From the NCBI GenBank assembly GCA_007124045.1, contig SLFX01000108.1:1-55888 (forward strand): a DNA stretch of 55,888 nt, in the 5' to 3' direction. Below the pieces are notes generated by a model. The model did no database searches. It was not told the origin of the DNA and saw only the letters and a program-made list of their open reading frames with translations. A program made the position numbers and the translations under genes. Position 1 is the first letter of the stretch. Every line of letters begins with the position of its first letter. Positions 3,747 through 38,082 of this stretch are shown here, piece by piece. The stretch comes from Candidatus Delongbacteria bacterium (GTDB lineage Bacteria > UBA4055).

Positions 3747-4282
3747 AAAAACTGATGCTTCCTGAAAAAGGCATTGTGTGTGCCTGTATTAAAACTTCTA
3801 TGGGATGGCTCGCTTACGCAGTCAGTTCAAAAGGGTTAAAAGAGTGCAGATTCATGTTCGAAACGAAAAAAGATGCTGAAGATACCCTCAAAGCCATTTT
3901 TAATGAAAACGAACTTCACTCTGACGAATCGGTCTCGGAGAAATGGTCGGAGCTTTTTGTAAAATATTTTGCCGGAAAGTTAAAATCATTCGCAAAAACA
4001 CCTCTGGACACATCATCCTGGACGGATTTTTCTAAAAAGGTGTACGGAGCCGTCAAAAGCATCCCTTACGGCAGAACGGCCTCTTACGGTGCCGTAGCGT
4101 CGTATCTCGGTAACGAGAAAGCATCAAGGGCTGTCGGCAATGCACTAAAAAGAAATCCAGTCCCGCCGATTGTACCGTGTCACAGAGTAATAGCTGCAGA
4201 CAAAGAACTGTGCGGTTTTTCTGCCAACGGCGGTCTTGATCTTAAGCTGAAGATGATAGAAATGGAGAGATCGAACCCTTGA
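3743..4282 (+). CDS. ogt: methylated-DNA--protein-cysteine methyltransferase
   Basis: 179 aa with the active-site PCHRV motif preceded by IPYGRTASYG and ASRAVGNALKRNP. ATGA start/stop overlap with mtnA. Confidence 0.85.
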   Translation: MKKLMLPEKGIVCACIKTSMGWLAYAVSSKGLKECRFMFETKKDAEDTLKAIFNENELHSDESVSEKWSELFVKYFAGKLKSFAKTPLDTSSWTDFSKKVYGAVKSIPYGRTASYGAVASYLGNEKASRAVGNALKRNPVPPIVPCHRVIAADKELCGFSANGGLDLKLKMIEMERSNP

Positions 4283-4289
4283 TCTCAAA

Positions 4290-4316
4290 TTAAAAAGGGC
4301 GGAATCATCCGCCCTT
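4290..4316 (-). terminator. Rho-independent terminator of module copy 1 (possibly also serving convergent ogt)
   Basis: Perfect 8-bp stem aagggcgg/ccgccctt (4295-4302 and 4309-4316) with a 6-nt loop. On the minus strand it is followed by a T-run. The plus-strand tail is weak. Confidence 0.5.
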
Positions 4317-4337
4317 ACATTTAGCACTCCAAAACCT

Positions 4338-5084
4338 CTACACGAATGTCTGATCGTCGAACTGCTTTTCTTTCTTAATGAACTTAAAGTAAACTATAAG
4401 GAAAGCGATAATTATAAGCGAGGAAATGACAGATTCGAAAGGATGATCTACCAGCACAAGTGTTCTGTCAATAAAGAGTGCGACCCTGCCCATAACAGTA
4501 GAACCGAAAGCTGCTCCGAAGAAAATCATCATGATAACAATACCCGCCCTTGCAGTTTTACCCAGTATGCCTTTGTGCGGTTTTGAGAAGAAAAAGTACA
4601 TTAGTGCCGAGAAAGTACCAAATATTATTACGAACCACTTTGATGATTCGTAAAGTGATCCCTGATTTAACGGCTGCATCAGGTTTGTACTCTGCCTGAG
4701 TACATTCTGTACGGTTATCGGGATAACATATCCTGCAGCATATCCGAAGAAAAAACCGTAGTAATAGTTTGCCACCCATCCTCTTTTTCTGGAAAACCTG
4801 AAGAACATTGTAAGTGCAAGAAGGAACCATAGAATTATAAAAATATCGGACGCTTTAAATTCTATGATCATATCATTAATAGGCATGATAAAAAAAGGTC
4901 TGATAACATAGTTCCACGACATAAGCCATCCGTATCCGAGAGAAACACCTATAAAAATATTTTCACCTATTTTATAAAGAGGATTATCCCTGTAGAGAAA
5001 TGACATTATCATCAGAGTGGCAAGAACAGGCATCCATCTGAAGAAAAAATTATTAAGAAATATCGAGTCAAGTAGTGCGTCCAT
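4338..5084 (-). CDS. uncharacterised polytopic membrane protein, module subunit D (copy 1)
   Basis: 248 aa with about 7 hydrophobic segments. Paralogue of 33906-34664, sharing the run SKWFVIIFGTF(S/C)ALMYFFFSKPHKGILG. Its start overlaps the stop of subunit C (TAATG). Confidence 0.8.
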   Translation of the reverse strand: MDALLDSIFLNNFFFRWMPVLATLMIMSFLYRDNPLYKIGENIFIGVSLGYGWLMSWNYVIRPFFIMPINDMIIEFKASDIFIILWFLLALTMFFRFSRKRGWVANYYYGFFFGYAAGYVIPITVQNVLRQSTNLMQPLNQGSLYESSKWFVIIFGTFSALMYFFFSKPHKGILGKTARAGIVIMMIFFGAAFGSTVMGRVALFIDRTLVLVDHPFESVISSLIIIAFLIVYFKFIKKEKQFDDQTFV

Positions 5085-5929
5085 TATGATCTCCTGTTCT
5101 TTTTTTCAATAAAATATACAATATTACCGATCAGTACGAATCCGAAGACTACAAGATGTGAAAGTGTAAGGGAAGCCATTCCCCTGGTGGCAGTATCGTA
5201 ATAACCCGGTCCGTCAGGATCATATTTTTCCGATACCATCATCTCATATTCAGCCGCTCCGCGCAATCCGAAACTCAAACCCGTCAGCTGACCTGTCTGA
5301 ATAAACGGTATGTAGTCGGGCCCCATGACAGCGGTAACAGCAAGTCCGAGAGTATATCCAAATCTGATCTGCATATCCACCCATGTAAAATGCCATCCCG
5401 AACCAGACAAGCCGAGTATGAATCCGATGTCATTTATAGTTTCTACGCCGTCGAAAATAACACCTTCTTTTTTGAAGGTTCCTTTATAATCTGTGGACAT
5501 ACTGAATATCATAATATCTGAACTTATGGGTATCCATTCCATGTGTATATAATCAACCCCTTCCCGCAGGTGTGCGAATTCATCTTCGGCCGTTATCTCG
5601 GCTACAGCATCTTTTCCAAGACCTATACCCATGAGCGTGGCATAGTAAATAAAGACCTTAAGTTCTTTTTTCATGCAGTGCCTGAAAAATGCCTTGAAGA
5701 AAGGAACAAGTTCAGCCTTTACTGAAGGGTCGAAAGCCCAGTCAATATGTACCGCATCACCCTTTTCAAGAGATTCAATATAATTGAATATATACTCAGT
5801 CTCTTTTGTGCTGCTTACCGGGAATCTCAAAAATTCTGTTCCCGGAAGAAAGGGAATGAGGATTGAAAGAAATACCAAAAGGTATATGATCCTTCTGTCA
5901 ATTTTCTTTATTTTTTCATAAAATTTCAT
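5084..5929 (-). CDS. uncharacterised protein with N- and C-terminal TM helices, module subunit C (copy 1)
   Basis: 281 aa. It has an N-terminal anchor (IIYLLVFLSILIPFL), a soluble middle and a C-terminal TM followed by a basic tail. Paralogue of 34676-35518. Confidence 0.8.
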   Translation of the reverse strand: MKFYEKIKKIDRRIIYLLVFLSILIPFLPGTEFLRFPVSSTKETEYIFNYIESLEKGDAVHIDWAFDPSVKAELVPFFKAFFRHCMKKELKVFIYYATLMGIGLGKDAVAEITAEDEFAHLREGVDYIHMEWIPISSDIMIFSMSTDYKGTFKKEGVIFDGVETINDIGFILGLSGSGWHFTWVDMQIRFGYTLGLAVTAVMGPDYIPFIQTGQLTGLSFGLRGAAEYEMMVSEKYDPDGPGYYDTATRGMASLTLSHLVVFGFVLIGNIVYFIEKKNRRS

Positions 5930-5949
5930 TTTACACCCGATCCTTAATT

Positions 5950-6564
5950 TTATTCAGACAAATGAGCTCGTTCAAGCCCGAAGAAAATTCTAATGAACAT
6001 CGTTATAGATCCCAGATAACCACCGAATATGATCGCCCTTCTGCCCGCACTCGATGGCGCGTCCAGTATCCATTCGCCAAAAAGCGGGATCTTGTCCCAT
6101 ATTGCCTCACCGAGAGGTATCTTTCCCATCATCACGATCACCGAGGCGACCAGAAGTACGGCTGATTCAAGTGACTTGGCCTTGAACGATCTGTATGCTG
6201 CTGACGCGATGTAAAAAGCCAGCAGCGAGAATACCGTTGCCTGAAAAGGAACATAAACATTCATGAACATTGACATGAACGGAGTTCCCGGACTCATCCC
6301 TCTTTTCGCTCCGAGAAAAAGCATCAGTAATATCATTGATATTCTCAGAAACGAATAATATCTTTCGTTATTGTATTTAATTTTCATATACATCTGTCTC
6401 GAAACAGAGTAAATGGATATCATTACTCCTACAACTCCGCCTATCCTTAATCCGTTCGCAAAGAAAAGCTTCAGGTTTTCATAGAAAAGACCGGCGATGA
6501 AAAACTCTGTGTACCAGATCACTCCCGCTACAAGTCCCATAAAAATTGGTATTTCTTTTTTCAT
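5950..6564 (-). CDS. uncharacterised polytopic membrane protein, module subunit B (copy 1)
   Basis: 204 aa. An ungapped hand alignment to 35537-36151 gives about 121/204 identical residues, including an identical C-terminus FGLERAHLSE. Confidence 0.8.
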   Translation of the reverse strand: MKKEIPIFMGLVAGVIWYTEFFIAGLFYENLKLFFANGLRIGGVVGVMISIYSVSRQMYMKIKYNNERYYSFLRISMILLMLFLGAKRGMSPGTPFMSMFMNVYVPFQATVFSLLAFYIASAAYRSFKAKSLESAVLLVASVIVMMGKIPLGEAIWDKIPLFGEWILDAPSSAGRRAIIFGGYLGSITMFIRIFFGLERAHLSE

Positions 6565-6589
6565 AATTCTGATTCCTCAGATTTAAGTT

Positions 6590-8488
6590 TTACTTAGTGT
6601 CCAGAAGGTCCGCGATCCATGTCCATTCAGCATTAATAGTAAGAAGTATAGTGCCGAGCAGAAACAAAAATCCGAACAGTATTTTACCATAGTCGGAGAG
6701 TTTCAGATTTGAAAGAACCTGAGCATCTCTTGAAAGATAAGCGGCGGCGGCGTAAAGCTCTTCTCCTATAAGAGTATAATCGCATGCCGTAATGAAGAAC
6801 GGTAACTGTGAAGCGTCAACAGTTCCTGCCACCTGTATAGCTCCGGCAGCGTAACCGGCCTCGGCGATAAGAAGAGATTCGGCCGCATAAGTTCCAAAAT
6901 GGAATGCGGAAGCAGGTTTCAGTCTGGAGATCAGACCTGACAGGCCCGCAGCAAAAGCAAACTGATCCGAAACCATAAAGAAACAGTTGGTCTTTTTATG
7001 ATCTTCCGGATAACCTGCGTCAAGAAACCCCGAACTTACCATTTCTTCGGCGACCTGAAGAACGATAGGGTCATAAGCAGGATAAACTATCTCCGCTTTG
7101 AATTCAGCCACTTTTTTGGAAACATTCCTCAGAATAAGCATACTTGCTATTGTCTGCGGATTTGTAAATGCTCCAAGACCGGAATCATAAATGATCGGTT
7201 TTCCCATCTCTGTCGCTCTTCCGACGGCATCGTCAATTGCATCAAGACCAGGTATTCTTCTGATGAATATTGAATCTCTCTTTTTTCTGACAGTTATAAA
7301 AACATAGAAGAAAAGTATGAAGAACATCAGAGAACCGATTAGAACATTAAGTCTGTATGTCCTGAATCCCCTTTCCGCTGCGAACCTTGAATAAACCCTC
7401 ATTCTTGAGTGGAGATCATGATAAAATTTTATTCTGAGTATATTTCTGAAAAAAGGCTCAAGTTCAGGATCGCCTGTTTTTATTTTGTTTATGAGTTCTG
7501 CATTAATATCGTATATGCCCGGATGAGTCATATACCTTGAAGTAATAGACATCAGCCTAACAACTTCATCAGTCTTGACCTTGTCAATGTTGACTTTCCT
7601 TGCTTCTATCCACTGATCGTAATAAAAGGATTCAAGATCTCTGTCACCTGCCTCAATAGCCTCTCTCCGGAGTTTATACATCTCGTCTATATTGGCCCTG
7701 ATCATCTCCCTATATTCATCTTCCCTTGAATTTACATATCCGGCAATTATACCCGCTATTTCCTCGAGACCTTCTTTGACCTCGGGAGCAACATAAAGGA
7801 AGTACAGTCTTTTATCAGTAAGTCTTGTCGTTTCACTGTAAACTCTGTCAAGCATTTCGTCCCAGCCGATGCTGAGTCTCCTGATATTCCTGTAGATGTT
7901 TCTGATCTCTGTCGCTGTCGAAGCTGTAATTCCTGAGTTCGCACCCCGCATCAGATAATCTTCAATCACATCGAGCCTGCCAATATCCATTTGATCTGCA
8001 TAACCCAGAAGTGAAGGATTCTTCTGATTTCCGGAAAGTTCGTTCTCTATTCTTTCCAGTTCATCACTGATCAGTCCTTTGTAAAATTCGTCTTGTATCA
8101 GCGGATAAACAACACTATACAGTTCACCGAGCCTTTCCATATCACTTCTGTTGGATTCATCAGGGTCTGCTCCTGATCTGTAAAATGAGTTCACATACGA
8201 AGTCACTCTGGGTAGAAGAACCTCGTAGTCTCTGGAGACATCCCAGTCTTCGTAGATCTGCATGAATCTCTCAGCTGCTTTCTTACAGAGAATCTCCTCT
8301 TCTGTGAGTTCTTCTTCAGCCTGATAATGCTCAGTCTCAGACTCTCCTTCAGTTTCAGCCGGCTCAATGTCACCGGCCTCTTCCGCGATTTCAACTGCAT
8401 GACCCTCAGCTTCGGCCATCTCTTCCTGAGACCACAATATCGCGGCAGAAAAAAGGACAGTCAGCATGATAATAAGAAATCTTCTCAT
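6590..8488 (-). CDS. uncharacterised large membrane protein, module subunit A (copy 1)
   Basis: The ORF extends to a GTG at 8542. ATG 8488 gives a canonical signal peptide (MRRFLIIMLTVLFSAAILW), matching the paralogue's start. It has an acidic/coiled-coil N-terminal region, a TM, then a conserved ~260 aa C-terminal domain (IPGLDAIDDAVGRATEMGKPI ... FFITACDYTLIGEELYAAAAY). Confidence 0.75.
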   Translation of the reverse strand: MRRFLIIMLTVLFSAAILWSQEEMAEAEGHAVEIAEEAGDIEPAETEGESETEHYQAEEELTEEEILCKKAAERFMQIYEDWDVSRDYEVLLPRVTSYVNSFYRSGADPDESNRSDMERLGELYSVVYPLIQDEFYKGLISDELERIENELSGNQKNPSLLGYADQMDIGRLDVIEDYLMRGANSGITASTATEIRNIYRNIRRLSIGWDEMLDRVYSETTRLTDKRLYFLYVAPEVKEGLEEIAGIIAGYVNSREDEYREMIRANIDEMYKLRREAIEAGDRDLESFYYDQWIEARKVNIDKVKTDEVVRLMSITSRYMTHPGIYDINAELINKIKTGDPELEPFFRNILRIKFYHDLHSRMRVYSRFAAERGFRTYRLNVLIGSLMFFILFFYVFITVRKKRDSIFIRRIPGLDAIDDAVGRATEMGKPIIYDSGLGAFTNPQTIASMLILRNVSKKVAEFKAEIVYPAYDPIVLQVAEEMVSSGFLDAGYPEDHKKTNCFFMVSDQFAFAAGLSGLISRLKPASAFHFGTYAAESLLIAEAGYAAGAIQVAGTVDASQLPFFITACDYTLIGEELYAAAAYLSRDAQVLSNLKLSDYGKILFGFLFLLGTILLTINAEWTWIADLLDTK

Positions 8489-8569
8489 AGTCACCTTTTC
8501 CGTTCTTATATTTATTTCTGATATTTTATTGCAAACCTTCACACATCACCTCAAATTCACGAATAGGTG

Positions 8570-8598
8570 ATTATATGAAACCATCCTAAAAAAATCAA
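8570..8598 (-). promoter_or_regulatory. candidate sigma70-type promoter of module copy 1
   Basis: The minus strand reads TTGATT, a 17-nt spacer, then TATAAT. It lies in the 75-bp intergenic gap upstream of subunit A. Confidence 0.4.
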
Positions 8599-8617: not shown

Positions 8618-9781
8618 TTATCGGTAAAAACCGATCCTGTAAACATAGATCTCGTTATCGTCCCTGTTGAAAACAAACAACAGATCGCCCTTTATCGTCT
8701 TTTCGAAACCGTCTTCATTATAATAGAAGTCAGATCCTTCGGCATTAAGATCAACAGTGTTCAGATATACTCCATCTTTAAATACATCCAGAATAAAATT
8801 GAAGATATCGTTTTCTGTTCTTCTCCTTCCGGCTTCGACAAGAAGATATCCGTCTTTATGAAAATAAATTTCCTTCACGGCTTTTTTTGTTCTTATTCGC
8901 GAAGGGTCCACCTGTCTCCATCTGAATCTGGATTCAAGAGCTTTCATCATATGTTCTCTTTCAATATCCGAATATTGTACTCTCGCATGATTTTTTCTGA
9001 TCTCGGAGACCTTGTTACCCGAATAGTCAAAAACCTCTATCAGATATCTCATATCGGAGTTTTCAGCCACAAAAATATTACCGTCCCCGAAAGTAAACTT
9101 ATTTATATGGTCTTCAGGAATAAAATCCCTGAAATCCACTTCCGTCTGTTCAGATACAAGTTCAGTAATTTTTTCGAAATTTCCGTTAAGGATTGACAGA
9201 CTGTAATTTATGCTCATGGCGCCGCCGCTTCTGCCTCCCGAACGCCCGAAAAGTATCCCTGCAAAATTTCCGTCCCCGATACTTACAAGAGTTTGCGGTA
9301 GACCATTTTCACGCAAAGGAACAATATCTTTAATGAAATTTCCGTCTCTGTCAAAAGTAATCACTTTACGCTGCCTCTGATCTGAAATATAAACAGTGTC
9401 GGAGTAACACAATATCTCAATCGGGGCTGTCATTTCCCCGGGGCCCGTCCCTCTTTCCCCAAAACGGTTTAAAAACGATCCGGAACTGTCATACTTGAAT
9501 ACCGAAGCTCTTCTTCTATCAAGAATATATATGTTTCCATCGTCATCCAGATCTATAGATGTTATGTTGCGTATTACATCCGTAGTATCGCCGGTATCCT
9601 GATTCAGGATGAAAAGAAGTTCTGTTTCTACTTTCAGATCTCTGTCAGAAGGATAGTTGCCGTTCCTGTAAACCGTAATGCCGTTAACAATCTCCACGCT
9701 TCCAGTCTGATCAGGAACGCAGGAATGAAGTAATATCAGACTTAATATCCAAACGAGTATCTTTATTTTTTTTAACAGCAT
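8618..9781 (-). CDS. 6-bladed beta-propeller (NHL-like) lipoprotein, putative
   Basis: 387 aa with signal peptide plus Cys (LILLHSC). It has repeated blade-like segments such as IYILDRRRASVFKYDSSGSFLNRFGERGTGPGEM. Confidence 0.55.
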   Translation of the reverse strand: MLLKKIKILVWILSLILLHSCVPDQTGSVEIVNGITVYRNGNYPSDRDLKVETELLFILNQDTGDTTDVIRNITSIDLDDDGNIYILDRRRASVFKYDSSGSFLNRFGERGTGPGEMTAPIEILCYSDTVYISDQRQRKVITFDRDGNFIKDIVPLRENGLPQTLVSIGDGNFAGILFGRSGGRSGGAMSINYSLSILNGNFEKITELVSEQTEVDFRDFIPEDHINKFTFGDGNIFVAENSDMRYLIEVFDYSGNKVSEIRKNHARVQYSDIEREHMMKALESRFRWRQVDPSRIRTKKAVKEIYFHKDGYLLVEAGRRRTENDIFNFILDVFKDGVYLNTVDLNAEGSDFYYNEDGFEKTIKGDLLFVFNRDDNEIYVYRIGFYR

Positions 9782-9842
9782 CTCAGCCCTGTAGTTTTTA
9801 GAGTTAACGGAATAAAACGAATTTTATTTTTCATTTGAGAAA

Positions 9843-11066
9843 TTATGGCGTTTTGGCAAGCCTGAAACCGTGATCGACCATACTCGAAAATGGGGAGCTG
9901 TAACGGAAAGAGACCCGTGAGTAAAATGCGTTTCTGTACCAGTTCCCTCCGCGCAGTACTCTCTTTGAACCGTCCGCAGGTCCGTCCGGGCCTCTGGGAT
10001 TGATCTTATCTTCTTCAGTGTACATGTCCCACCAGTCCCAGCACCATTCCATCACATTTCCGGCCATATCGTAAACTCCGTAGGCGTTCGGCGGAAAACT
10101 TCCCACGGGCGAAACACTGACGGGATAACCGGGATGATTGCCTTCAGTAAGACTTACATCGTATGAATAATAAGGTTCTCCATCTGACCAGAAGCTTAAA
10201 TAATTGGCAGATGTATCGCCTTCAGAACCGTGGGAGATGGTGTCGCCGTCCGGAAAATTCTTGCCGTCAAGACCGCCCCTGGCCGCGAACTCCCATTCAG
10301 CTTCAGTCGGAAGTCTGTATCCGTCGGCAGTCCAGTCGCATATAACTGCATCCCATGCAGGGTCTGTACGATAAGGAGGAATACCCCAGTCATCAGGATC
10401 GGTCGAACCGAGAATGGTATAGGCAGGTGTTAAACCTTCGGCAATACTTCTCAGGTTACAGTACCTTAATATATGGTACCAGAAAACTTTGTAAGCCGGA
10501 TAATTATCTCCCTGGCCGTGCGTATAGGTGGCAGACGGCATATAATCTGTCCATTCTTTTTGAGTTACAGGATATTTCCCTATATAGAATGCATCTACTG
10601 TTACCTGATGGACAGGTCTTTCCCAATAGCCGCCTTCGCCTGAATGATCTCCCATGTAGAAAGTACCGCCCGGAATAAGAACAAATCTTTCCTCGGGCTC
10701 GACCGTAACATTGATCGTGTCGGATATTCCTACATAACCTTCAGTGCAGTAAGCCTTTGCGTATATCGAATGAGAACCAATACTGCCTGATGTATTCCAT
10801 AAAAATTCAAACGGTGATTCTGTAATAGTGTTTTCGAGTTCGTTATTTAGGTAGAATTCTACACAGGAAATCGTTCCCGCGAATGTAACATCCGCACTGA
10901 CCGTAACTATTTCTCCTTCAGTGAACACTGAGCTGTCATCTATATCTATCAGACTTATCTCAGGAATTACGGGGTCTGAGGGTGCCGAAGGACTGTCCTT
11001 TGAACACGACCAGAAAATCAGACCCGTAAAAGCCAAAAATGCAAAAATTATTCTAAATTTACTCAT
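9843..11066 (-). CDS. formylglycine-generating-enzyme (SUMF1/FGE-sulfatase) domain lipoprotein with N-terminal Ig-like domain
   Basis: C-terminal hallmark RVLRGGNWYRNAFYSRVSFR...HGFRLAK, plus AGNVMEWCWDW. ATG 11066 follows GGAG and yields the lipoprotein signal FTGLIFWSC. The ORF could extend to 11093. Confidence 0.8.
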   Translation of the reverse strand: MSKFRIIFAFLAFTGLIFWSCSKDSPSAPSDPVIPEISLIDIDDSSVFTEGEIVTVSADVTFAGTISCVEFYLNNELENTITESPFEFLWNTSGSIGSHSIYAKAYCTEGYVGISDTINVTVEPEERFVLIPGGTFYMGDHSGEGGYWERPVHQVTVDAFYIGKYPVTQKEWTDYMPSATYTHGQGDNYPAYKVFWYHILRYCNLRSIAEGLTPAYTILGSTDPDDWGIPPYRTDPAWDAVICDWTADGYRLPTEAEWEFAARGGLDGKNFPDGDTISHGSEGDTSANYLSFWSDGEPYYSYDVSLTEGNHPGYPVSVSPVGSFPPNAYGVYDMAGNVMEWCWDWWDMYTEEDKINPRGPDGPADGSKRVLRGGNWYRNAFYSRVSFRYSSPFSSMVDHGFRLAKTP

Positions 11067-11219
11067 AATATTTCTCCGCAGATTCTTCATCATATCAAAT
11101 ATAACAATTGAGCTTCATCAATGCAAGAATTTAATTAGAGTGTATTTTGCGTCAAACATCATCCCCTGTTGCTTTTCTCACAATTTTTGTTTAATTTCCA
11201 AAAAAATCAGGAAGCTGTT

Positions 11220-13832: not shown

Positions 13833-13875
13833 CCGGTTGACAAACCTGCTAAAAATTCTCTTTTTTGTCAACCGG
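13833..13875. promoter_or_regulatory. palindromic site CCGGTTGACAA-N21-TTGTCAACCGG (copy downstream of the XRE gene)
   Basis: Perfect 11-bp inverted arms. The same arms recur at 14882-14922. In this copy the -10-like hexamer is degenerate (CAGGTT on the minus strand). Confidence 0.5.
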
Positions 13876-13900
13876 CCTGATTTTCTAAAAACAATATATA

Positions 13901-14957: not shown

Positions 14958-15034
14958 AATCACATATGATCCTTCCAGCCAGAAGCGACCGCATAGTCCA
15001 TGCACCTTTTGAAGATATCATAATTCATTTTCGG
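14958..15034. repeat. 77-bp direct repeat, intact-gene copy (partner at 13748-13824)
   Basis: There are two mismatches between the copies (13771 t versus 14981 a; 13787 g versus 14997 t). The copies are 1210 bp apart and bracket the XRE gene. Confidence 0.85.
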
Positions 15035-18083: not shown

Positions 18084-18157
18084 GCACCATTAGCTCAGTT
18101 GGATAGAGCAACGGATTTCTAATCCGTAGGTCAGAGGTTCGAGCCCTCTATGGTGTA
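18084..18157 (+). tRNA. tRNA-Arg (anticodon TCT)
   Basis: A 74-nt cloverleaf folded by hand. Acceptor gcaccat/atggtgt, D arm gctc-agttggata-gagc. Anticodon arm acgga-ttTCTaa-tccgt, variable loop aggtc. T arm agagg-ttcgagc-cctct, discriminator A. No encoded CCA. Confidence 0.9.
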
Positions 18158-24042: not shown

Positions 24043-25686
24043 TTATATATCCGCCAGTTCTTTTGCCTTATACATCAGTTCTATAGCTTTAATCACGAAT
24101 TTATCCTTCATAACACGGATTTTTGGGTACTCGCTTCTTTCCTTAAAGAACTGCCTTGCGATACTGTATTTTATATCATTGATTATCCTGTCTTTGTCCT
24201 GCTTGAACTGTTCTTTAGTGTGATAAAATTCACCTCTTGTCATTTCCTCTCTAAGGGGAAGAACTTCTTTAAGATTCACTTTATTTCGCACCATTGCCTC
24301 TTTAAACCCTTCCAGCATATTTTCATCTACTTTGAATTCATTGTAGAATTTGTCAAAATCATCTTTCCAAACAGGATTCTGGTTGTTATTAAAATATTCT
24401 ATTGCAAAATCCTGAAACACTCTCTGCCTTAAAAGATCTGTCATGAGTCTTGAAGTAGGATCGTATGTTATGACAGAATCGGGGAAAATTCCGCCGCCGC
24501 CGAATACTGTACGGTTCTTCCTGAGGGTAAAAAACTCTTCGGGACCTTCCTCGTCATCATTTTCGTCTAAGTTGCCGTCAGCATCAAAAAATCTGTCGAG
24601 ATAATAACTTTCCATACCGTCGTCATAAGGTCTCTGTATAAGCCTTCCTGTTGGCGTATAGTATCTCGATATTGTTATTCTTGCAACCGATCCGTCACCC
24701 AGATCGAACGGTCTCTGAACCAGGCCTTTTCCAAAAGATCTGGTCCCGAGTATAAGCGCTCTGTCATGATCCTGCAGAGCACCGCTGACTATTTCTGATG
24801 CTGATGCAGATCCGGCGTCTATAAGTACTACTATTGGAAGTTTACTGTATTTTGCAGGTTTTTTTGAATAGTATTCTTCATTGAAATCGGAAAAACGGCC
24901 TTTTGTGTAAACTATGAGTTTACCCGGTTCGATGAATTTTTCGACGATCTCTACAGCCTGATCCATTAGTCCGCCCGGATTTCCCCTGAAGTCAAGTATA
25001 AGTCTTTCCATACCTTTTTGATCCAGGGACTTTAAAGCATTATCAACCTCTTCTGAAGTTCTGGCCGCAAATCTGTTTACTGATATATAGCCTGTTATTC
25101 CGTCATCAAGCAAAACCTCGGCAGAAACACTGTAAATCGGGATTTTTCCCCTTATGATCTCAAACTCCATAGGTTCATCTGTACCCTGCCTCAAAACAGT
25201 CACAGTAACTTTTGACCCTATAGGGCCCTTCAGCCTGTCAAAAACCTCCTGAGTAGTTATATCAAAAGCGGTTATACCGTCTATTCTTATTATCCTGTCC
25301 CCCGGCATCAGACCAATTCTGTCCGAAGGAGTATCCGGTATGGGAGAGACTACTGTAAGATATTTATTCCTGATCTCAAATTCTATTCCGATACCTCCAA
25401 ACCCACCCTTGAAATCCTCTTCGACAGTCCTCTGTGTTTCTGCCGGAATATAGGCGGAATGGGGATCCAGAGCTTTCAGCATTCCCTCTATTGCACCTTT
25501 CATCATTTCATCTATATCGGGTTCCTCAAGATATACATTGTCAACGATCCTTAAAATGTAGTTCATCTTATGGAAATAATTGATCGCACTTCCCGATGAA
25601 GCTTCCGCTTCTTCGTATTTGTAGCTTAACGAAATGGCCGCGATCAGTAAAAAGACTGCAACCATATAAAAATTTTTGTCTGACAT
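24043..25686 (-). CDS. S41 family carboxyl-terminal processing peptidase with PDZ domain
   Basis: It has a PDZ segment (SPIPDTPSDRIGLMPGDRIIRIDG) and the catalytic region LIDAGSASASEIVSGALQD...GTRSFGKGLVQ. ATG 25686 has a GGAG upstream; the ORF extends to 25713. Confidence 0.85.
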   Translation of the reverse strand: MSDKNFYMVAVFLLIAAISLSYKYEEAEASSGSAINYFHKMNYILRIVDNVYLEEPDIDEMMKGAIEGMLKALDPHSAYIPAETQRTVEEDFKGGFGGIGIEFEIRNKYLTVVSPIPDTPSDRIGLMPGDRIIRIDGITAFDITTQEVFDRLKGPIGSKVTVTVLRQGTDEPMEFEIIRGKIPIYSVSAEVLLDDGITGYISVNRFAARTSEEVDNALKSLDQKGMERLILDFRGNPGGLMDQAVEIVEKFIEPGKLIVYTKGRFSDFNEEYYSKKPAKYSKLPIVVLIDAGSASASEIVSGALQDHDRALILGTRSFGKGLVQRPFDLGDGSVARITISRYYTPTGRLIQRPYDDGMESYYLDRFFDADGNLDENDDEEGPEEFFTLRKNRTVFGGGGIFPDSVITYDPTSRLMTDLLRQRVFQDFAIEYFNNNQNPVWKDDFDKFYNEFKVDENMLEGFKEAMVRNKVNLKEVLPLREEMTRGEFYHTKEQFKQDKDRIINDIKYSIARQFFKERSEYPKIRVMKDKFVIKAIELMYKAKELADI

Positions 25687-25696
25687 TTTTACTCCT

Positions 25697-26902
25697 TTAC
25701 CGACTTTTAACAAAGATATTTTTTAATATATTTTCCTCGTCTTCCTGCAGTTCTATACCCCTTCTCAACATTACGGTTTTTACTGTATCAATAGTCTTAT
25801 TGAAGGGATACTTTAGCAGTTTTTCCCTGCCGCCCCAGTTAAAATCAGGAATGTTCCTGGGAGGAAAACCCTCTCCGTAAACATTGCAGGCGACGCCTAC
25901 TACAGAACCGGTGTTTATCATAGTATTTATTCCGGTTTTGGAATGATCCCCCATTATTAAACCGGCAAAAAGCGATTCTGTGTCTATAAGCCTGCCGTTA
26001 ATTTCGACTTTGACGAAAGAATAGTTATTCTTCAGATCTGAATTATTGGTATCCGCCCCCAGATTACACCACTCACCGATATAAGAATGACCCAGAAACC
26101 CCTCATGCTGTTTGTTGGAATAGCCGTGTATAACAGATCCTTCGATCTCGCCTCCGGCCTTGCATACATTTCCTATCGAAGTGTTTTCATATATTCTTGC
26201 ACCTGATTTAATGATCGTTTTTTTTCCAATGTAAACCGGACCTGTTATTACGCAGTTGTACATGATATTTGCATCATCATCAATTACAACAGGACCTTTT
26301 GAGGCATCAATAACTGTTCCCGCACCGACTTTCGCGGTTTTACTGATAAGTACCTGATCTTTATTTTCAATAAAAACTCCGGTTATTCTAGGCTTCTTCC
26401 ACCGGTCCTCCCGCGAAAGTATCTCTGTATCATTTTTTATCCATTCACCTGTACTGTTCACTATGTCCCAGGGATACCGTATAACTTCAAGGATCGGTCT
26501 CACATTAGTCTTAACCCCGTTTTTTACACTTTCAACAAACTCGGATTTACAGGTGAACTTTCCTGTAAGCAGGTTGCCGTTATCATCTGATGAAAATCTG
26601 CTTTTCTGTTTTTCAATTGCACTGAAATATTTAATAAAATTCTTGTTGGGCAGTATCCTTGCATTAATTGCTATAAAACTCTCCCCTTCAGGAAGATCCA
26701 TGACTCCTTTGAGCCCTGATCTTTTCATTGCGGGATCGAAAGCTTTCCTGTAAAAAAAATAAAATTCCCGGTCTTTGAATATTCTGGTGTATCTCTCCCG
26801 GACGCTGAATATCCCGTCCCTAAGTTCGAATACAGGCCTTGTTTTTGTTAAAGGCCCAAAGTTTTTATATCCCGAATCTTCAAATAATACTATTTTTTCC
26901 AT
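25697..26902 (-). CDS. GlmU-like sugar nucleotidyltransferase / hexapeptide-repeat (left-handed beta-helix) protein, putative
   Basis: 401 aa. The N-terminus IVLFEDSGYKNFGPLTKTRPVFELRDGIFS resembles the alternative bacterial GlmU-like family. The C-terminal half has hexapeptide-like repeats. Confidence 0.55.
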   Translation of the reverse strand: MEKIVLFEDSGYKNFGPLTKTRPVFELRDGIFSVRERYTRIFKDREFYFFYRKAFDPAMKRSGLKGVMDLPEGESFIAINARILPNKNFIKYFSAIEKQKSRFSSDDNGNLLTGKFTCKSEFVESVKNGVKTNVRPILEVIRYPWDIVNSTGEWIKNDTEILSREDRWKKPRITGVFIENKDQVLISKTAKVGAGTVIDASKGPVVIDDDANIMYNCVITGPVYIGKKTIIKSGARIYENTSIGNVCKAGGEIEGSVIHGYSNKQHEGFLGHSYIGEWCNLGADTNNSDLKNNYSFVKVEINGRLIDTESLFAGLIMGDHSKTGINTMINTGSVVGVACNVYGEGFPPRNIPDFNWGGREKLLKYPFNKTIDTVKTVMLRRGIELQEDEENILKNIFVKSR

Positions 26903-33905: not shown

Positions 33906-34664
33906 TCAGTGCATCTGTTCGTCATCAAGTCCGGGCTCTTTATGTATAAATTTGAAGTAAATGATCAGGAATATGCTTATAGCTATGCTCAGAACAAGAG
34001 AGGCCTCCCAGTCCGTGGCAAGCACCTGTGCCCTGCCTATGAAAAGGGCGATCCTGCCCATTACCGTAGCTCCGAAAGAAGCTCCGAAATTTATCATCAG
34101 GATAAGTATGCCGATCCTGGCCGTCCTGCCCAGTATTCCTTTGTGGGGTTTCGAGAAGAAAAAGTACATCAGGGCGCAGAAAGTTCCGAAAATAATGACG
34201 AACCATTTCGATATCTCAAAAAAGGTCGGATACTCGAGAAGAGGTTTCATCATGTCGGCCCCCTGAATGAAAAGCTGCTGAACCGTAGTGGGTATGCTGT
34301 ATCCGGCCACATAGGCGAAAACGAAAGCGAACCAGTAATTTGCGATCCAGCCTTTGTTCCTTGAAAACCTGAAGAACATCGTGCTTCCGATCAGAAGCCA
34401 AAGTATCAGTGTGAGGTCATAAGGCTGAAAATCATAATACGCATCTTTCAGCGGCCTGATAAGGTAAGGGACAATGACCATATTCCAGCTCCAGACCCAT
34501 CCGTAACCGAGTGAAATACCGAGAAAAGTGTTCTCGCCCAGCTTATACAGCGGATTATCCCTGAAGAGAAAAGAAAGCATCATCAGAGTGAAAAGAACGC
34601 TTAGCCATGTCTGAAATGTCGGGTTCATTATGGTATTGTCTATCAACAGGTCAATAATGTGCAT
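33906..34664 (-). CDS. module subunit D (copy 2), polytopic membrane protein
   Basis: 252 aa, colinear paralogue of 4338-5084. Confidence 0.8.
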   Translation of the reverse strand: MHIIDLLIDNTIMNPTFQTWLSVLFTLMMLSFLFRDNPLYKLGENTFLGISLGYGWVWSWNMVIVPYLIRPLKDAYYDFQPYDLTLILWLLIGSTMFFRFSRNKGWIANYWFAFVFAYVAGYSIPTTVQQLFIQGADMMKPLLEYPTFFEISKWFVIIFGTFCALMYFFFSKPHKGILGRTARIGILILMINFGASFGATVMGRIALFIGRAQVLATDWEASLVLSIAISIFLIIYFKFIHKEPGLDDEQMH

Positions 34665-34675
34665 TTTAAAAGCTC

Positions 34676-35518
34676 CTATCTGTTTTTCTTCTGCTTTCTT
34701 TCATAAAAATAAACGAAATTGCCGAGTCCTATAAACACGAACATTATAATGTGGGACATTGTAAGAGATGCCATTCCGGCATTAGCTGTGTTGTTAAAGG
34801 CAGGATCCGCACCGTTCGCTATCCTCAGATTCTCGTATTCGGCAGCTCCCTTGAGTCCGAAAAGCATCCCGTCAAGCTGTCCGGTCTGAAGAAAGGGAAT
34901 AAAATCCGGACCGACAACCGCAGTTACTCCGGCTCCCATTCTGAAACCGAATCTTCTCTGAAGGTAAATATAGCTTTCGGGGTGAGAGGAGCCGGCGTAG
35001 GACATCATGTATTTTATATCCCCGAAAGTCCTTATTCCCTCGAATATTCTCCCCTCTTTGCTGAAGGTGCCCTTGAAATCGGAATACATCGAGAAAAGCA
35101 TCATGTCAACACCGATAGGCAGATAGCCGAGGTGAATGAAATCGACCCCCTCCTCAATGTGTTCATATCCCGGTTCTGATCTGATCTTTTCAACAAGATT
35201 CTGCCCGAGGCTTATTCCCATTATCGAGGGATAGTATATGAATACTCTGAGTCTGTTATCGAAGCACTGTTTTAAGGTCTGCTCGGCCATGGGAAGAAGC
35301 TCCGCCTGCAGTGTCGGGTCGAATGCCCAGTCAATAAAAACAGCATCGCCTTCTTCAAGGCTATTGATTATGTCATACACCCTTTGTGTTTCTTTTGATA
35401 CCGCGAAATCCTGCTTAAACAGTCCCGGTACCCAGAAGGGTATTATACATGAAAGAAAGATAAGCAGGTAAATCCACCTTTTATCCAGCTTTTTTAGTTT
35501 GTAAACAATTTTTTCCAT
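34676..35518 (-). CDS. module subunit C (copy 2)
   Basis: 280 aa, colinear paralogue of 5084-5929. Shared blocks are GDAV(H/F)IDWAFDP, GVD(Y/F)IH, IPF(I/L)QTGQL and RGAAEYE/KGAAEYE. Confidence 0.8.
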   Translation of the reverse strand: MEKIVYKLKKLDKRWIYLLIFLSCIIPFWVPGLFKQDFAVSKETQRVYDIINSLEEGDAVFIDWAFDPTLQAELLPMAEQTLKQCFDNRLRVFIYYPSIMGISLGQNLVEKIRSEPGYEHIEEGVDFIHLGYLPIGVDMMLFSMYSDFKGTFSKEGRIFEGIRTFGDIKYMMSYAGSSHPESYIYLQRRFGFRMGAGVTAVVGPDFIPFLQTGQLDGMLFGLKGAAEYENLRIANGADPAFNNTANAGMASLTMSHIIMFVFIGLGNFVYFYERKQKKNR

Positions 35519-35536
35519 ATATCCCAGTACCTTATT

Positions 35537-36151
35537 TTATTCAGACAGATGTGCTCTTTCAAGACCGAAAGCTATCCTGATCATCATTGTAAGTCCGCCG
35601 AGAAAAGCCCCGAAAAGAATAGCTCTTTTACCTGCGCTTGTCGGACCGTCCATTATCCACTCGCCTATAACAGGGATCTTGTCCCACATTGCTTCCGCTA
35701 TCGGCATTTTTCCAAGCATGATGATAATCGCGGCTAAAAGAAGGAAAGCCGATTCAACTGATTTTATCCTGAACGAACGGTATGATGCGGAAGCGACATA
35801 GAAGGCAAGCAGCGAGAATACGGTCGCGTCAAGAGGTACAAAACCGTAGGTAAACATAGCATCGAACGGAGTACCCGGACTTATTCCTCTGATAGAAGCG
35901 AAAAATATCATTAACGCTATTATAGACATCTGATAGACTGCGTACCACCTGTCATTGTTGTATTTAATCTTCTTATAGTTCACCCTGACCACATTCACTA
36001 TACCTACCAGCAGACCCACGATCGCCACATTTCTGAATCCCGTCATGAAGAGCATTTTCCAGTTCTCGAAGAACCTGCCCGCCAAAAAGAATTCAAGATA
36101 CCATCCGATCGTGGCTAAAAATCCGATTAAGAGGGGTATTTCTTTTTTCAT
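35537..36151 (-). CDS. module subunit B (copy 2), polytopic membrane protein
   Basis: 204 aa, the same length as copy 1, with about 59% identity by hand count. Confidence 0.8.
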   Translation of the reverse strand: MKKEIPLLIGFLATIGWYLEFFLAGRFFENWKMLFMTGFRNVAIVGLLVGIVNVVRVNYKKIKYNNDRWYAVYQMSIIALMIFFASIRGISPGTPFDAMFTYGFVPLDATVFSLLAFYVASASYRSFRIKSVESAFLLLAAIIIMLGKMPIAEAMWDKIPVIGEWIMDGPTSAGKRAILFGAFLGGLTMMIRIAFGLERAHLSE

Positions 36152-36173
36152 ATATCAAGCCCTAAATTAAATT

Positions 36174-37994
36174 TTACCTGGTGTAGATCAGATCCTGAAG
36201 GAAAGTCCATTCCGAATTGATCGTGAGCATAATAGTACCTATGATGAAAAGCACACCTATAACCAGCTTGGCGTAATCCGAGAGTTTCAGGTTTGTCAGT
36301 ATCTGCGGATCTCTTGAGATATAAGCCGCCGCAGCATAAAGTTCCTCACCTATTAGTGTATAGTCACATGCCGTTATGAAGAACGGTATCTGCGAAACCG
36401 CTGTAGTTCCGGCAACCTGAATTGCGCCTGCCGAAAAACCGGCTTCGGAAATGAGAAGAGATTCGGCGAAATAGTAACCGAAGTGAAAAGCTGTAGCCGG
36501 CTTCTTCCTTGCCAGAATGCCGGCAAGACCGGCCGCAAAAGCGAACTGATCGTACGCTATAAAGAAAATGTTGTCCTTTTTATGATCCTCCGGATAGCCG
36601 GCATCAAGAAAACCCGAAGCCACCATCTCTTCAGAGATCTGAAGGATGATAGGGTCACAGGTCGGCACATATATCTCGGCTTTGAACTCCGCTACTTTTT
36701 TAGCGATGCTCTTTAAGATAAGCATACTGGCGATCGTATCAATATTAGTGTAACCGCCGAGACCCGAATCATAAACGATAGGCTTTCCCATTTCCGTCGC
36801 TCTTCCTATCGCATCATCTATGGCATCAAGACCGGCGATCTTTCTGATGAACAAACCTTCCCTGTTTTTTCTGACCTGAAAGAATACATAAAAGAAAAGG
36901 ATCATAAAAAGAAGAGTGCCTATGAGCACATTTTTTCTGAAGGTTCTGAAAACGGGAGTTCTGTCATAGATCACATAAGAGGTAAAAGTTGAGGTGAGGC
37001 TGCTGTAAAATCTGTTTTTTATCTGAGAGGCGAACATTTCCTTTGCTTCGGGCGAATCCTCATGTATTAATACTATCAGCTCATCCGGTATTTCAAAATG
37101 ACCTATACCGTTTTCTTCCTCCATACCGGCCAGAATATCCGTGGTAAGATAGGTAAGGTCATATCTCATATCCTCACGCAGATCAAAAAGCGTCAGCCGT
37201 TTCATCTCTATCCAGTCTTCCCTGGCATAATTATATTCAAGTCGGGCATTTTCTATCAGCTCTTTCTTCTTTCTGTCTATGTGGAACATTATCCTTTTAT
37301 AATTTTCGGATGTCATCCGCGAAAGAATATATTCGTCAGCACCCTGCTTCTTCAGCTCCTCGTATTCGCTAAGTGCTTCGTACATTTCTTCAAAGTATTC
37401 TTCGTCATAAGCAAGATGATCAACAACCTCAAGATCAGTAATTCCCCTGACAGCTCTAAGTTCGCCGTCGAGTCTTCTCATTTCATTGAGATAATCATCC
37501 ACCTCCGCCAGGTGATTCTCCCAGAGCATATCCTCTCTTTCACTTACGAACCGCTTGATCTTGTCCGCAGCCGCATCCAGACTTTCGTGAAGGTCTTTGC
37601 TGATATAACCCCAGTAAAAATCCCTCGTCGTTATAAACCTGGCGACCTCTTCATAAATTTTATCATCCCTGAGGGCCTTGAAAGCGATAAACTTACGCAT
37701 TTCATACTCGGTCATAGGTTCGCCCAGCCGCTCTTTTTCGACGATATCCAATGTAAAGTCCGGATATGAACTGTAGAAATCTGAAATAAAATCCTTAACC
37801 CTGGGATACAGAATACCAATGTTCCTTTCAGGATCCCAGTTTCTGAATATTTCCATAAGGTCGTTCGCCACTTCTGAGGCAAGAATTTCCTCTTCGGATA
37901 AATTGACATTATCCGTTTCATGCTCAGCTTCAAACTCCCCGCAAAGCCGGACAAAAATAGTCAGGGTGAAGATCAGAATGAGATATTTTTTCAT
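36174..37994 (-). CDS. module subunit A (copy 2)
   Basis: 606 aa with signal peptide MKKYLILIFTLTIFVRLCG. The N-terminal region is homologous but much more diverged than the C-terminal domain, which is highly similar to copy 1. Confidence 0.8.
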   Translation of the reverse strand: MKKYLILIFTLTIFVRLCGEFEAEHETDNVNLSEEEILASEVANDLMEIFRNWDPERNIGILYPRVKDFISDFYSSYPDFTLDIVEKERLGEPMTEYEMRKFIAFKALRDDKIYEEVARFITTRDFYWGYISKDLHESLDAAADKIKRFVSEREDMLWENHLAEVDDYLNEMRRLDGELRAVRGITDLEVVDHLAYDEEYFEEMYEALSEYEELKKQGADEYILSRMTSENYKRIMFHIDRKKKELIENARLEYNYAREDWIEMKRLTLFDLREDMRYDLTYLTTDILAGMEEENGIGHFEIPDELIVLIHEDSPEAKEMFASQIKNRFYSSLTSTFTSYVIYDRTPVFRTFRKNVLIGTLLFMILFFYVFFQVRKNREGLFIRKIAGLDAIDDAIGRATEMGKPIVYDSGLGGYTNIDTIASMLILKSIAKKVAEFKAEIYVPTCDPIILQISEEMVASGFLDAGYPEDHKKDNIFFIAYDQFAFAAGLAGILARKKPATAFHFGYYFAESLLISEAGFSAGAIQVAGTTAVSQIPFFITACDYTLIGEELYAAAAYISRDPQILTNLKLSDYAKLVIGVLFIIGTIMLTINSEWTFLQDLIYTR

Positions 37995-38053: not shown

Positions 38054-38082
38054 AATATAAATCAGCACTATAATTTTAACAA
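38054..38082 (-). promoter_or_regulatory. candidate promoter of module copy 2
   Basis: The minus strand reads TTGTTA, a 17-nt spacer, then TATATT. It lies about 60 nt upstream of the subunit A ATG. Confidence 0.35.

Follow-up and report, generated by a model that had tools for sequence, protein, structure and literature searches.

A conserved four-gene membrane module carrying the DUF6754 domain, present in two copies on a Candidatus Delongbacteria contig

We analyzed a 55,888-nucleotide stretch of DNA from Candidatus Delongbacteria bacterium (positions 1 to 55,888 of contig SLFX01000108.1, assembly GCA_007124045.1; hereafter, the window), in which two copies of a four-gene module, A-B-C-D (ABCD), are encoded on the minus strand (Table 1). 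An initial annotation, made from the letters of the sequence, had described the first copy as four packed minus-strand genes separated by gaps of 25 and 20 nucleotides (nt) and by a TAATG overlap, and had reported a second copy at 33906-37994, with the same order and near-identical sizes. The packing of copy 1 is borne out by the list of open reading frames (ORFs) and by reading of the junctions, and copy 2 is borne out by the same list and by the identities of 44-59% between corresponding proteins: 44% for A (approximately 75% in its C-terminal domain), 59% for B, 50% for C, and 58% for D.

Table 1. Genes and predicted signals of the two ABCD copies in the window
Feature	Position	Strand	Basis and remarks
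Gene A copy 1 (A1)	6590..8488	-	ATG at 8488, 632 aa; longest ORF from GTG at 8542, 650 aa
Gene B copy 1 (B1)	5950..6564	-	ORF list, 204 aa
Gene C copy 1 (C1)	5084..5929	-	ORF list, 281 aa
Gene D copy 1 (D1)	4338..5084	-	ORF list, 248 aa
Gene A copy 2 (A2)	36174..37994	-	ORF list, 606 aa
Gene B copy 2 (B2)	35537..36151	-	ORF list, 204 aa
Gene C copy 2 (C2)	34676..35518	-	ORF list, 280 aa
Gene D copy 2 (D2)	33906..34664	-	ORF list, 252 aa
Promoter-like site, copy 1: TTGATT-17 nt-TATAAT	8570..8598	-	consensus scan, 10/12 matches; predicted
Promoter-like site, copy 2, weaker: TTGTTA-17 nt-TATATT	38054..38082	-	9/12 consensus matches; predicted
Intrinsic-terminator-like hairpin and T-run, copy 1	4286..4316	-	consensus scan and sequence reading

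At the junctions of copy 1, the 25-nt gap between A1 and B1 contains GAGGA before the B start, the 20-nt gap between B1 and C1 contains AAGGA before the C start, and the C1 stop and D1 start share TAATG, with AGGAG ahead; ribosome-binding sites of the GGAG/AGGA type precede every start. For A1, the ATG at 8488 has GGAAAAGG (ggaaaagg) just ahead, so that the protein begins with MRRFLIIMLTVLFSAAILW, a typical signal peptide. The promoter candidate and the hairpin with a T-run that had been proposed for copy 1 were both found at its ends. The terminator-like hairpin (4316..4295) reads AGGGCGGA-tgat-TCCGCCCT, followed by the T-run TTTTTAATTT; it has a stem of 9 base pairs, six of them G-C, and a 4-nt loop, and is located 22 nt past the D1 stop codon. 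We conclude that A-B-C-D is a real operon, whose genes are tightly spaced and translationally coupled. It should be noted that a 191-residue ORF lies on the same strand 38 nt downstream of D2 (33292-33867); from reading of its sequence, we take its product to be nitroreductase-like. No terminator-like site was found between D2 and this gene, and copy 2 may be co-transcribed with it.

The only Pfam family in the module is DUF6754 (PF20539) on A. The match covers 6623..7372 (minus strand) in A1 (E-value (E) 9.9e-90, 300.6 bits, profile positions 4-252 of 257) and residues 348-596 in A2 (E 2e-94, 316 bits, positions 5-252 of 257); the Pfam gathering score is 27 bits. Membership of A1 and A2 in DUF6754, over almost the full profile, is the only family membership that we found, and every A homologue carries this domain. 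The Pfam entry represents one domain of one subunit, and no function, fold or partner has been assigned to it. In neither copy did B, C or D match Pfam, and none of the eight ABCD proteins matched NCBIfam. Permissive per-member Pfam scans (E <= 1) of 50 B, 73 D and 81 C homologues returned scattered hydrophobic noise only. Searches of PDB sequences with profiles of the A, B, C and D families produced no match, the lone exception being a weak signal to titin Fn3 that came from the N-terminal region of A proteins of the Elusimicrobia type; a profile restricted to the DUF6754 core matched no PDB sequence even at E <= 10. The check by profile hidden Markov models (HMMs) that the initial annotation had recommended (Pfam, NCBIfam, PADLOC and PDB profiles) thus yielded no confident match to a characterised complex. 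Database names of the homologues are all "hypothetical protein" or "DUF6754 domain-containing protein".

A motif scan of the eight proteins found no Walker A, LSGGQ, CxxCH, CxxC, Fe-S or PP-loop strings, and no family match to ABC, ECF or Exb/Tol systems was obtained; the absence of Walker/ABC, Fe-S and heme signatures, which had been noticed before, therefore stands. The GxGxxG-like strings of C1 and C2 sit at non-equivalent positions, and no nucleotide-binding or catalytic signature is conserved. Paralogy of the A core with C, and of B with D, had been suspected and was ruled out at the sequence level, since hhalign comparison of family alignments of approximately 95 sequences gave probabilities of at most 1.6%. 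By this measure, A, B, C and D are four distinct families with no detectable mutual relation; the A core and C nonetheless share, in AlphaFold models, the overall plan of a transmembrane (TM) helix, an α/β domain, and a second TM helix.

The linkage of the four genes was tested using 80 retained genome loci, whose ORFs were searched with the window proteins and then with family HMMs; an A gene was counted when at least 2.6 kb of downstream sequence was present. B, C and D follow in order, on the same strand, after 76 of the 82 A genes in these loci. Of the six exceptions, five are due to ORF-start artefacts, B having been found in those loci, and the sixth, a Coatesbacteria locus, is the only true absence of B, C and D after A. 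An independent set of metagenome loci showed the A-B-C-D order in 21 cases out of 21; taken together, the linkage is kept by approximately 102 of the 103 A genes whose flanking DNA is long enough. The same order was found in Elusimicrobia contigs with called genes, and on a Bathyarchaeia contig, where the module is flanked by genes for eIF-1A, ribosomal protein L37e and diphthamide synthase. The cultured Clostridium sp. 'deep sea' (CP063353, around 2.065-2.086 Mb) contains at least four tandem modules, in which A is only 257 residues long. In all, the A-B-C-D order is kept across more than 15 bacterial phyla (the groups with this order include Delongbacteria, Elusimicrobia, Nitrospirota, Ignavibacteria, Zixibacteria, Poribacteria, WOR-3, Cloacimonadota, Fermentibacteria and Planctomycetota) and on this one archaeal contig, which contradicts chance adjacency, the alternative that the initial annotation had named.

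A scan of one genome per GTDB species detected a DUF6754 gene in at least 548 species. The carriers include Delongbacteria, Ignavibacteria, WOR-3, Zixibacteria, Elusimicrobia, Poribacteria, Fermentibacteria and Sumerlaeota, as well as Stahlbacteria, Edwardsbacteria, Nitrospirota, Planctomycetota, Eisenbacteria, Mcinerneyibacteriota, Coatesbacteria and Cloacimonadota. The closest A homologues are found in Candidatus Delongbacteria metagenome-assembled genomes (MAGs). An exhaustive profile search with the C family gave 5,446 clusters at 50% identity at E <= 1e-3, and 4,345 at E <= 1e-10. No relative of ABCD was found on viral contigs, and the PADLOC-DB models gave 0 matches for A-D, as well as for the partner proteins X and M described below; on these two results, a defence system or phage cargo was rejected.

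Analysis of hydropathy and of the lysine/arginine (K/R) bias supports the earlier description of B and D as polytopic proteins and of C as a protein with TM helices at both ends; for C, the AlphaFold model agrees. For A, the predicted layout is a signal peptide, an acidic ectodomain outside, TM1, the DUF6754 α/β core inside, a last TM helix, and the C-terminus outside. The size of about 632 residues, the signal peptide, the acidic ectodomain and the TM helix that had been proposed for A are thus retained, and the ectodomains of the two copies are strongly acidic (net charge -30 and -33). Two other parts of that description did not hold: a crude heptad scan of the ectodomains showed no clear coiled-coil signal, and the C-terminal domain, previously called hydrophobic, is mostly a soluble α/β domain between two TM helices, with no hydrophobic block, according to hydropathy and AlphaFold. 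B1 has six hydrophobic segments, which correspond to six TM helices with a predicted N-in/C-in topology; the conserved motif FSLLAFYIASAAYRSF is placed by this topology in TM4 and the following cytoplasmic loop. D has approximately six hydrophobic segments, K/R-rich loops at residues 92-113 and 163-179 and a K/R-rich C-terminus, the conserved motifs SFLYRDNPLYK-x-GEN, YFFFSKPHKG and FGAAFGSTVMGR, and the polar invariant residues Glu41 and Arg200 at TM segments. In C, approximately four K/R residues are present at each short terminus, and the 225-residue middle is therefore predicted to face outward; the second TM helix of C1 bears the invariant His258 and Asn269.

Averaged over each family, the K/R bias predicts that B and C have both termini on the inside and that A has its C-terminus on the outside. 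Extracellular-type domains have been acquired in several lineages: a PQQ/BamB-type β-propeller (L067; loci are numbered with L) and an Fn3-like region (Elusimicrobia) at the N-terminus of A, FG-GAP repeats (L032) and an insert of approximately 240 residues (L048) in the TM3-TM4 loop of B, and CARDB or HEAT repeats near profile positions 100-113 of C. These additions occur exactly at the predicted outside positions and hence provide independent support for the topology. Conversely, the DUF6754 core is the slowest-evolving part of the module: the window proteins are 33-47% identical in the core to those from distant phyla or from the archaeal contig, versus approximately 30% across phyla for B, C and D. 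The core contains 28 invariant and approximately 30 near-invariant columns, many of them charged (R54, E71, R166, E181, E187, D214, E220, E221, D243; residues are numbered in the A2 core fragment of 276 residues), and its invariant charged strand-end stretches include Cys-Asp-Tyr and Gly-Glu-Glu; C213 is also invariant. An invariant inside combined with a variable outside suggests that the cytoplasmic ligand or partner is universal, and that the external contacts differ between lineages.

The single-chain AlphaFold2 models were compared to the PDB using Foldseek, one of the checks recommended earlier, and only generic Rossmann-like matches were obtained. The model of C (pLDDT 94.7, pTM 0.89) consists of a TM helix, an α/β domain of six to seven strands, and a long TM helix; its matches are GT-B halves (the LpcC C-terminal domain, TreT, SenB), PGS fusion partners and transhydrogenase dIII, with E >= 2e-3 and a TM-score of approximately 0.33. 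The model of the A2 core has moderate confidence (pLDDT 73) and consists of a TM helix, five β-α units, and a TM helix; it matched only SDRs, the PP-loop enzyme LarE and USP, with E >= 0.1 and TM-scores of 0.2-0.3. For example, the cAMP-bound USP 5ahw_A was matched with a Foldseek probability of 0.89 at an E of 0.28. The USP/HUP ATP-binding motif is G-x2-G-x9-G-[ST]; the A core has instead a conserved G-x3-G-x5-G-T between β4 and β5, unlike the USP motif. All these matches of the A core and C are at the level of fold class (TM-scores of approximately 0.2-0.35, identity of approximately 10-15%, no diagnostic motif). The C-terminal ends of β-strands are the usual ligand site of the Rossmann-like fold, and in both models invariant residues follow the β-strands, where such folds bind ligands (in C, the conserved charged residues at strand ends include Glu73, Asp147 and Glu229, in the numbering of C1); we infer that both domains may bind ligands.

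The many invariant charged strand-end residues of both α/β domains would also fit a membrane-bound enzyme complex that has a Rossmann-like site on each face of the membrane and acts, for instance, by modifying or flipping a lipid- or polyprenyl-linked intermediate. The best structural matches of C (GT-B halves and transhydrogenase dIII) are consistent with such an enzyme, as is the GT-C (PMT_2) gene that precedes A in some Elusimicrobia loci. We consider this explanation unlikely, since the structural matches are generic (TM-scores of approximately 0.2-0.35, E >= 2e-3), no catalytic or nucleotide-binding signature is conserved, and a biosynthetic enzyme would not usually occur in arrays of three to four modules or acquire adhesion-type domains. 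In addition, C differs from the GT-B glycosyltransferases in having a single α/β domain and no Glycos_transf_1-type Pfam match. The likeness to generic Rossmann-like domains (GT-B halves, transhydrogenase dIII, SDR, USP/HUP) is one of fold class and not of family; for the A core, no Pfam or PDB sequence match to USP/HUP exists and the Foldseek similarity is weak, and nucleotide binding of the USP/HUP kind by DUF6754 is a possible lead.

Modules are frequently duplicated. Tandem arrays of two or three full modules were found in Ignavibacteria, Zixibacteria, an Edwardsbacteria MAG and several unclassified MAGs, and arrays of two to four or more ABCD modules were recorded at ten loci (L007, L010, L013, L023, L031, L032, L039, L054, L062 and L085). 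In triple arrays, A, C and D each have their best match in the module of the same position (1, 2 or 3) of other genomes, and not in their own array; therefore, the subunits of one module share one evolutionary history. Such a shared history is what a physical complex would predict. The paralogous modules are old and non-redundant. In the window, the two copies are mutually closest: identity between copies is 50% for C and 58% for D, versus at most 35% and 40%, respectively, to other lineages, which suggests that they arose by an older duplication in the Delongbacteria lineage. The list of A2 matches suggests a third or further paralogue group in this lineage. The modules of Clostridium sp. 'deep sea' are 70-91% identical to one another and, judging from these values, are recent paralogues. 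An extra lone DUF6754 gene (319 residues) is present after D at two loci (L001 and L002).

Transporter families typically show repeated, independent duplication and tandem arrays, and a multi-subunit secondary (ion-coupled) or facilitative transporter of small solutes or ions is a possible, if somewhat unlikely, explanation of the module. B and D would form the pathway, C would be a membrane-tethered extracytoplasmic binding domain, and DUF6754 would be a cytoplasmic regulatory domain, possibly nucleotide-sensing, similar to the transporter-attached USP/RCK domains; the paralogues would carry different substrates. A total of approximately 16 TM helices without an ATPase, the invariant polar residues in or at the TM helices of C (His258, Asn269) and D (Glu41, Arg200), and the presence of cAMP-bound USP and LarE among the weak structural matches of the A core are all consistent with transport. 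However, neither the sequences nor the folds match any transporter family, and the USP-like similarity is weak (E of approximately 0.3), with no PDB sequence match at E <= 10. Internal repeats are common among transporter folds, and B has none. It should also be noted that the module has no substrate-specific catabolic neighbours and no riboswitches, and that the domains added on the outside (β-propeller, FG-GAP, CARDB, Fn3, HEAT) bind macromolecules and are not solute-binding folds.

We also performed a neighbour census by clustering the genes around the 80 genome loci. Three families, which we denote s, M and X, recur across phyla directly upstream of A and on the same strand. The small protein s has approximately 125 residues. 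M (approximately 610 residues) belongs to the MutL/GlmL family (PF13941, E 3e-127), with an actin/hydantoinase fold, and scores well under the NCBIfam GlmL equivalog cut-offs. X (approximately 377 residues) has a mean column identity of 65%; an RnfC_N/biotin-lipoyl-type barrel-sandwich N-terminus was detected in 17 of 22 members and a KOW-like C-terminus in 10 of 22, the RnfC_N/NqrA_N-type match being weak (best E 8e-6), and X has no PDB or NCBIfam match. In 21-24 of the 80 genome loci, the s-M-X trio immediately precedes ABCD in the same orientation. The related loci in which the trio was noted, often just ahead of ABCD, are L003, L033, L040, L049, L061, L065, L087 (for example at 3761-7153) and L088-L167. 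In the reverse scan of metagenome contigs with X, ABCD was adjacent in approximately 22 of the 49 loci with enough room; the usual order there was s-M-X-A-B-C-D, and some loci had two modules. Overall, s-M-X adjoins ABCD in approximately 30-45% of loci. None of s, M and X was found in the window by tblastn, and the linkage is therefore strong but facultative.

M-X also occurs without ABCD, for example in tandem copies (M-X-s-M-X). In seven metagenome loci (L113, L122, L135, L145, L148, L154 and L157), M-X is located immediately upstream of tolQ-tolR-tolA-pal; the TolQ and Pal proteins next to M-X were verified against the PDB (E 1.6e-27 and 1e-31, respectively). At L157, the order is M-n7-X followed by tolQ through pal, the latter at 13863-14375, and both at L154 and L157 arrays of ABCD divergently adjoin the M-X/tol-pal genes. 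These observations may reflect a functional connection of the partner module with Tol-Pal. At loci with X alone and no ABCD, the order is, as we presume from reading of the sequences of the neighbours, LpxB-like, X, outer-membrane-protein-like, AccA-like, Era-like. The other flanks of ABCD are heterogeneous, and the census revealed no recurrent catabolic genes; some Elusimicrobia modules are flanked by AsmA/YhdP-like, GT-C (PMT_2) and SurA-like genes.

Frequent operon linkage to a conserved cytoplasmic module, the location of that module beside Tol-Pal in other lineages, and the pattern of a variable outside and an invariant inside could also be explained by a transmembrane signalling or scaffolding complex, in which ectodomains sense or tether macromolecules, DUF6754 recruits M and X, and no substrate is moved. 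We regard this as quite unlikely: neither a kinase, cyclase or DNA-binding output domain nor a consistently nearby regulator was found, the minimal A has no ectodomain, and two polytopic subunits with highly conserved TM motifs exceed the apparent needs of a scaffold.

We compared the module to known systems with similar composition. The ECF/ABC transporters (EcfA-EcfA'-EcfT-S, CbiMNQO) resemble ABCD in having four subunits of similar sizes, two α/β and two polytopic, and several paralogous modules per genome. However, ABCD has no Walker A, no LSGGQ and no ABC_tran (PF00005) match, and none of the 50 B and 73 D homologues matched EcfT/CbiQ or S-components at E <= 1. Furthermore, both α/β domains of ABCD are held between TM helices, that of C facing outward, and the resemblance to ECF/ABC systems is an analogy only. 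The Tol-Pal and TonB-ExbB-ExbD systems share with ABCD the combination of inner-membrane bitopic proteins with periplasmic domains and polytopic partners, and the presence of multiple paralogues; in addition, the M-X partner genes adjoin either ABCD or tolQRA-pal, depending on lineage. In contrast to these systems, ABCD shows no homology to TolQ/ExbB, TolR/ExbD or TolA/TonB and no MotA_ExbB/ExbD match in Pfam, NCBIfam or PDB profiles, no equivalent of the conserved TM aspartate was identified, and ABCD also occurs where there is no outer membrane, namely in a Firmicute and on an archaeal contig.

Thus, a hyper-diverged version of a known four-component system (an ECF/ABC transporter or a TonB-ExbBD/Tol-type stator) is very improbable and largely refuted. 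Its appeal is in the ECF-like number and sizes of subunits (two α/β domains of approximately 260-280 residues and two polytopic proteins of approximately 200-250 residues), in the several copies, and in the bitopic periplasmic-domain proteins with polytopic partners that recall ExbBD-TonB. Against it are the missing Walker A/LSGGQ motifs, the absence of ABC_tran, CbiQ/EcfT, S-component, MotA_ExbB and ExbD matches at E <= 1 and of PDB profile matches, and the TM-flanked arrangement of the α/β domains, with C on the outside; by comparison, true TolQ and Pal are readily recognised in the same data set (for TolQ, E 1.6e-27 with the same tool). The platforms of type II secretion and type IV pili (PilM-PilN-PilO-PilC; GspL-GspM-GspF) similarly include bitopic and polytopic proteins and an actin-fold (ASKHA) cytoplasmic protein, here M. 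They differ from ABCD in that no genes for pilins, secretins, prepilin peptidases or hexameric ATPases are linked to ABCD, no HMM matches were found, and M belongs to the GlmL/hydantoinase branch and not to PilM/FtsA. Regarding Rnf/Na+-NQR, A-D have no RnfA/D/E or NqrB-E match and no Cys motifs, and only X has a weak RnfC_N/NqrA_N-type domain.

The surroundings of the two copies were analyzed as well. Upstream of copy 1, in the regions 8618-11093 and 13901-14866 (both minus strand), the genes immediately next to the module encode a β-propeller protein of six blades (DUF5128/NHL) and a Big_7-containing FGE-sulfatase protein, and a gene farther off from copy 1 encodes a regulator with HTH_3 and Peptidase_M78 domains (ImmA/IrrE-type); none of these genes is kept beside ABCD in other genomes. 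An 854-residue HEAT-repeat protein is encoded at 11169-13733 (plus strand), approximately 2.6 kb from copy 1. The distant C homologue P0481 has a HEAT insert in its outward-facing domain, and this correspondence may be a coincidence. At 14960-17915 (minus strand), the gene of a FAD_binding_4 protein (613 residues) overlaps that of a NAD_binding_4 "male sterility" fatty-acyl-reductase-like protein (394 residues). The pair had been considered as counterparts of M and X and was rejected, the two proteins being an FAD-binding oxidase and a fatty-acyl-reductase-like protein; it resembles alkyl-DHAP synthase and an acyl reductase and may represent bacterial ether-lipid genes. A tRNA gene is located at 18084-18157 (plus strand). 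A marginal Rfam match to Rickettsia sRNA47 at 24715-24831 (plus strand; 63.4 bits versus a gathering score of 60) lies opposite a 556-residue ORF (24043..25713, minus strand) and is probably spurious. The window, nine diverse loci and the two leader regions were also searched for riboswitches and leader RNAs as clues to a ligand, with negative results.

The earlier suggestion of a dedicated membrane complex outside the described families is supported by these results; the complex itself, and its role as a machine, are what we infer from the sequences. A-D would be four subunits of one complex in the cytoplasmic membrane, with approximately 16 TM helices in total, which would represent an undescribed family; the strict gene order, the translational coupling and the co-evolution of whole modules lend indirect support to the association of the four proteins. 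B (six TM helices) and D (approximately six) would form the membrane core. C would contribute two TM helices and an outward-facing Rossmann-like α/β ligand-binding domain, and A two TM helices and the near-invariant cytoplasmic DUF6754 domain, which would bind a conserved ligand or partner. In Delongbacteria, the long acidic ectodomain of A would project into the periplasm. We tentatively propose, with rather less than even confidence, that ABCD serves a housekeeping function and that something is moved or coupled by it between cytoplasm and cell envelope. Export, insertion or envelope maintenance would be likelier than uptake of a specific nutrient. ABCD itself encodes no ATPase; it might be energised by the membrane potential or, in the many lineages where the s/M/X set is adjacent, by that set, M being a GlmL-like actin-fold ATPase. 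The two copies in the window, as products of an old within-lineage duplication, would probably be two parallel complexes with different outward-facing specificity.

A housekeeping role at the envelope is favoured because the domains added on the outside are macromolecule-binding modules, because the neighbours are housekeeping or envelope genes and not catabolic ones, because no substrate-specific regulators or riboswitches were found, and because the partner module is alternatively wired to Tol-Pal. Absence from viral contigs and from defence-system models is also consistent with a housekeeping context. A bolder formulation, which we find possible but doubtful, is that ABCD and s/M/X together constitute a new class of machine, with Rossmann-like ligand-binding domains on both faces of the membrane and with envelope maintenance or export coupled to ATP or the membrane potential.

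Several observations weigh against the proposed envelope role. No homology or specific fold similarity in PDB profiles or Foldseek backs any transport or envelope mechanism, and DUF6754, PF20539 and PF13941 are unmentioned in the searchable literature; searches on GlmL, actin-like and membrane proteins and on Delongbacteria also turned up nothing relevant. The topology was predicted by the positive-inside rule and from the kinds of domains that are fused to the subunits. GAIQxAGT...QxPFF, the most conserved motif of A, falls in the lowest-confidence part of the A2 core model. B has no internal repeat, and the repeat in D is weak (32% probability). The envelope-type neighbours are lineage-specific and were not found in the window. 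Finally, a minimal A (257-261 residues, no ectodomain) is present in a Firmicute and on the archaeal contig; therefore, a mechanism that needs an outer membrane is excluded.

The ABCD module, three of its families, its topology, the arrays and the partner module appear to be undescribed in the searchable literature, and one domain of the module has already been catalogued, as DUF6754. As judged from sequence comparison, ABCD lies outside every kind of known system compared here and would be new in kind. To our knowledge, ABCD is absent from model organisms, which may explain why it escaped description. Among the organisms that carry it are several groups of environmental importance for which no genetic systems exist: nitrite-oxidising Nitrospira, anammox Brocadia, sponge-associated Poribacteria, Ignavibacteria, Elusimicrobia and Cloacimonadota. 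For B, C and D, there is neither a family model nor a structure nor any literature, and clustering at 50% identity yields more than 5,000 clusters for the C family. The minimal tandem modules of Clostridium sp. 'deep sea' offer a concrete entry point for biochemistry, and the very confident model of C offers one for structural work. If ABCD is indeed a new translocation or envelope-coupling machine, it would be a basic cell-biology component for a large part of the bacterial tree, and its membrane-tethered Rossmann-like domains on opposite faces would represent a new design principle.

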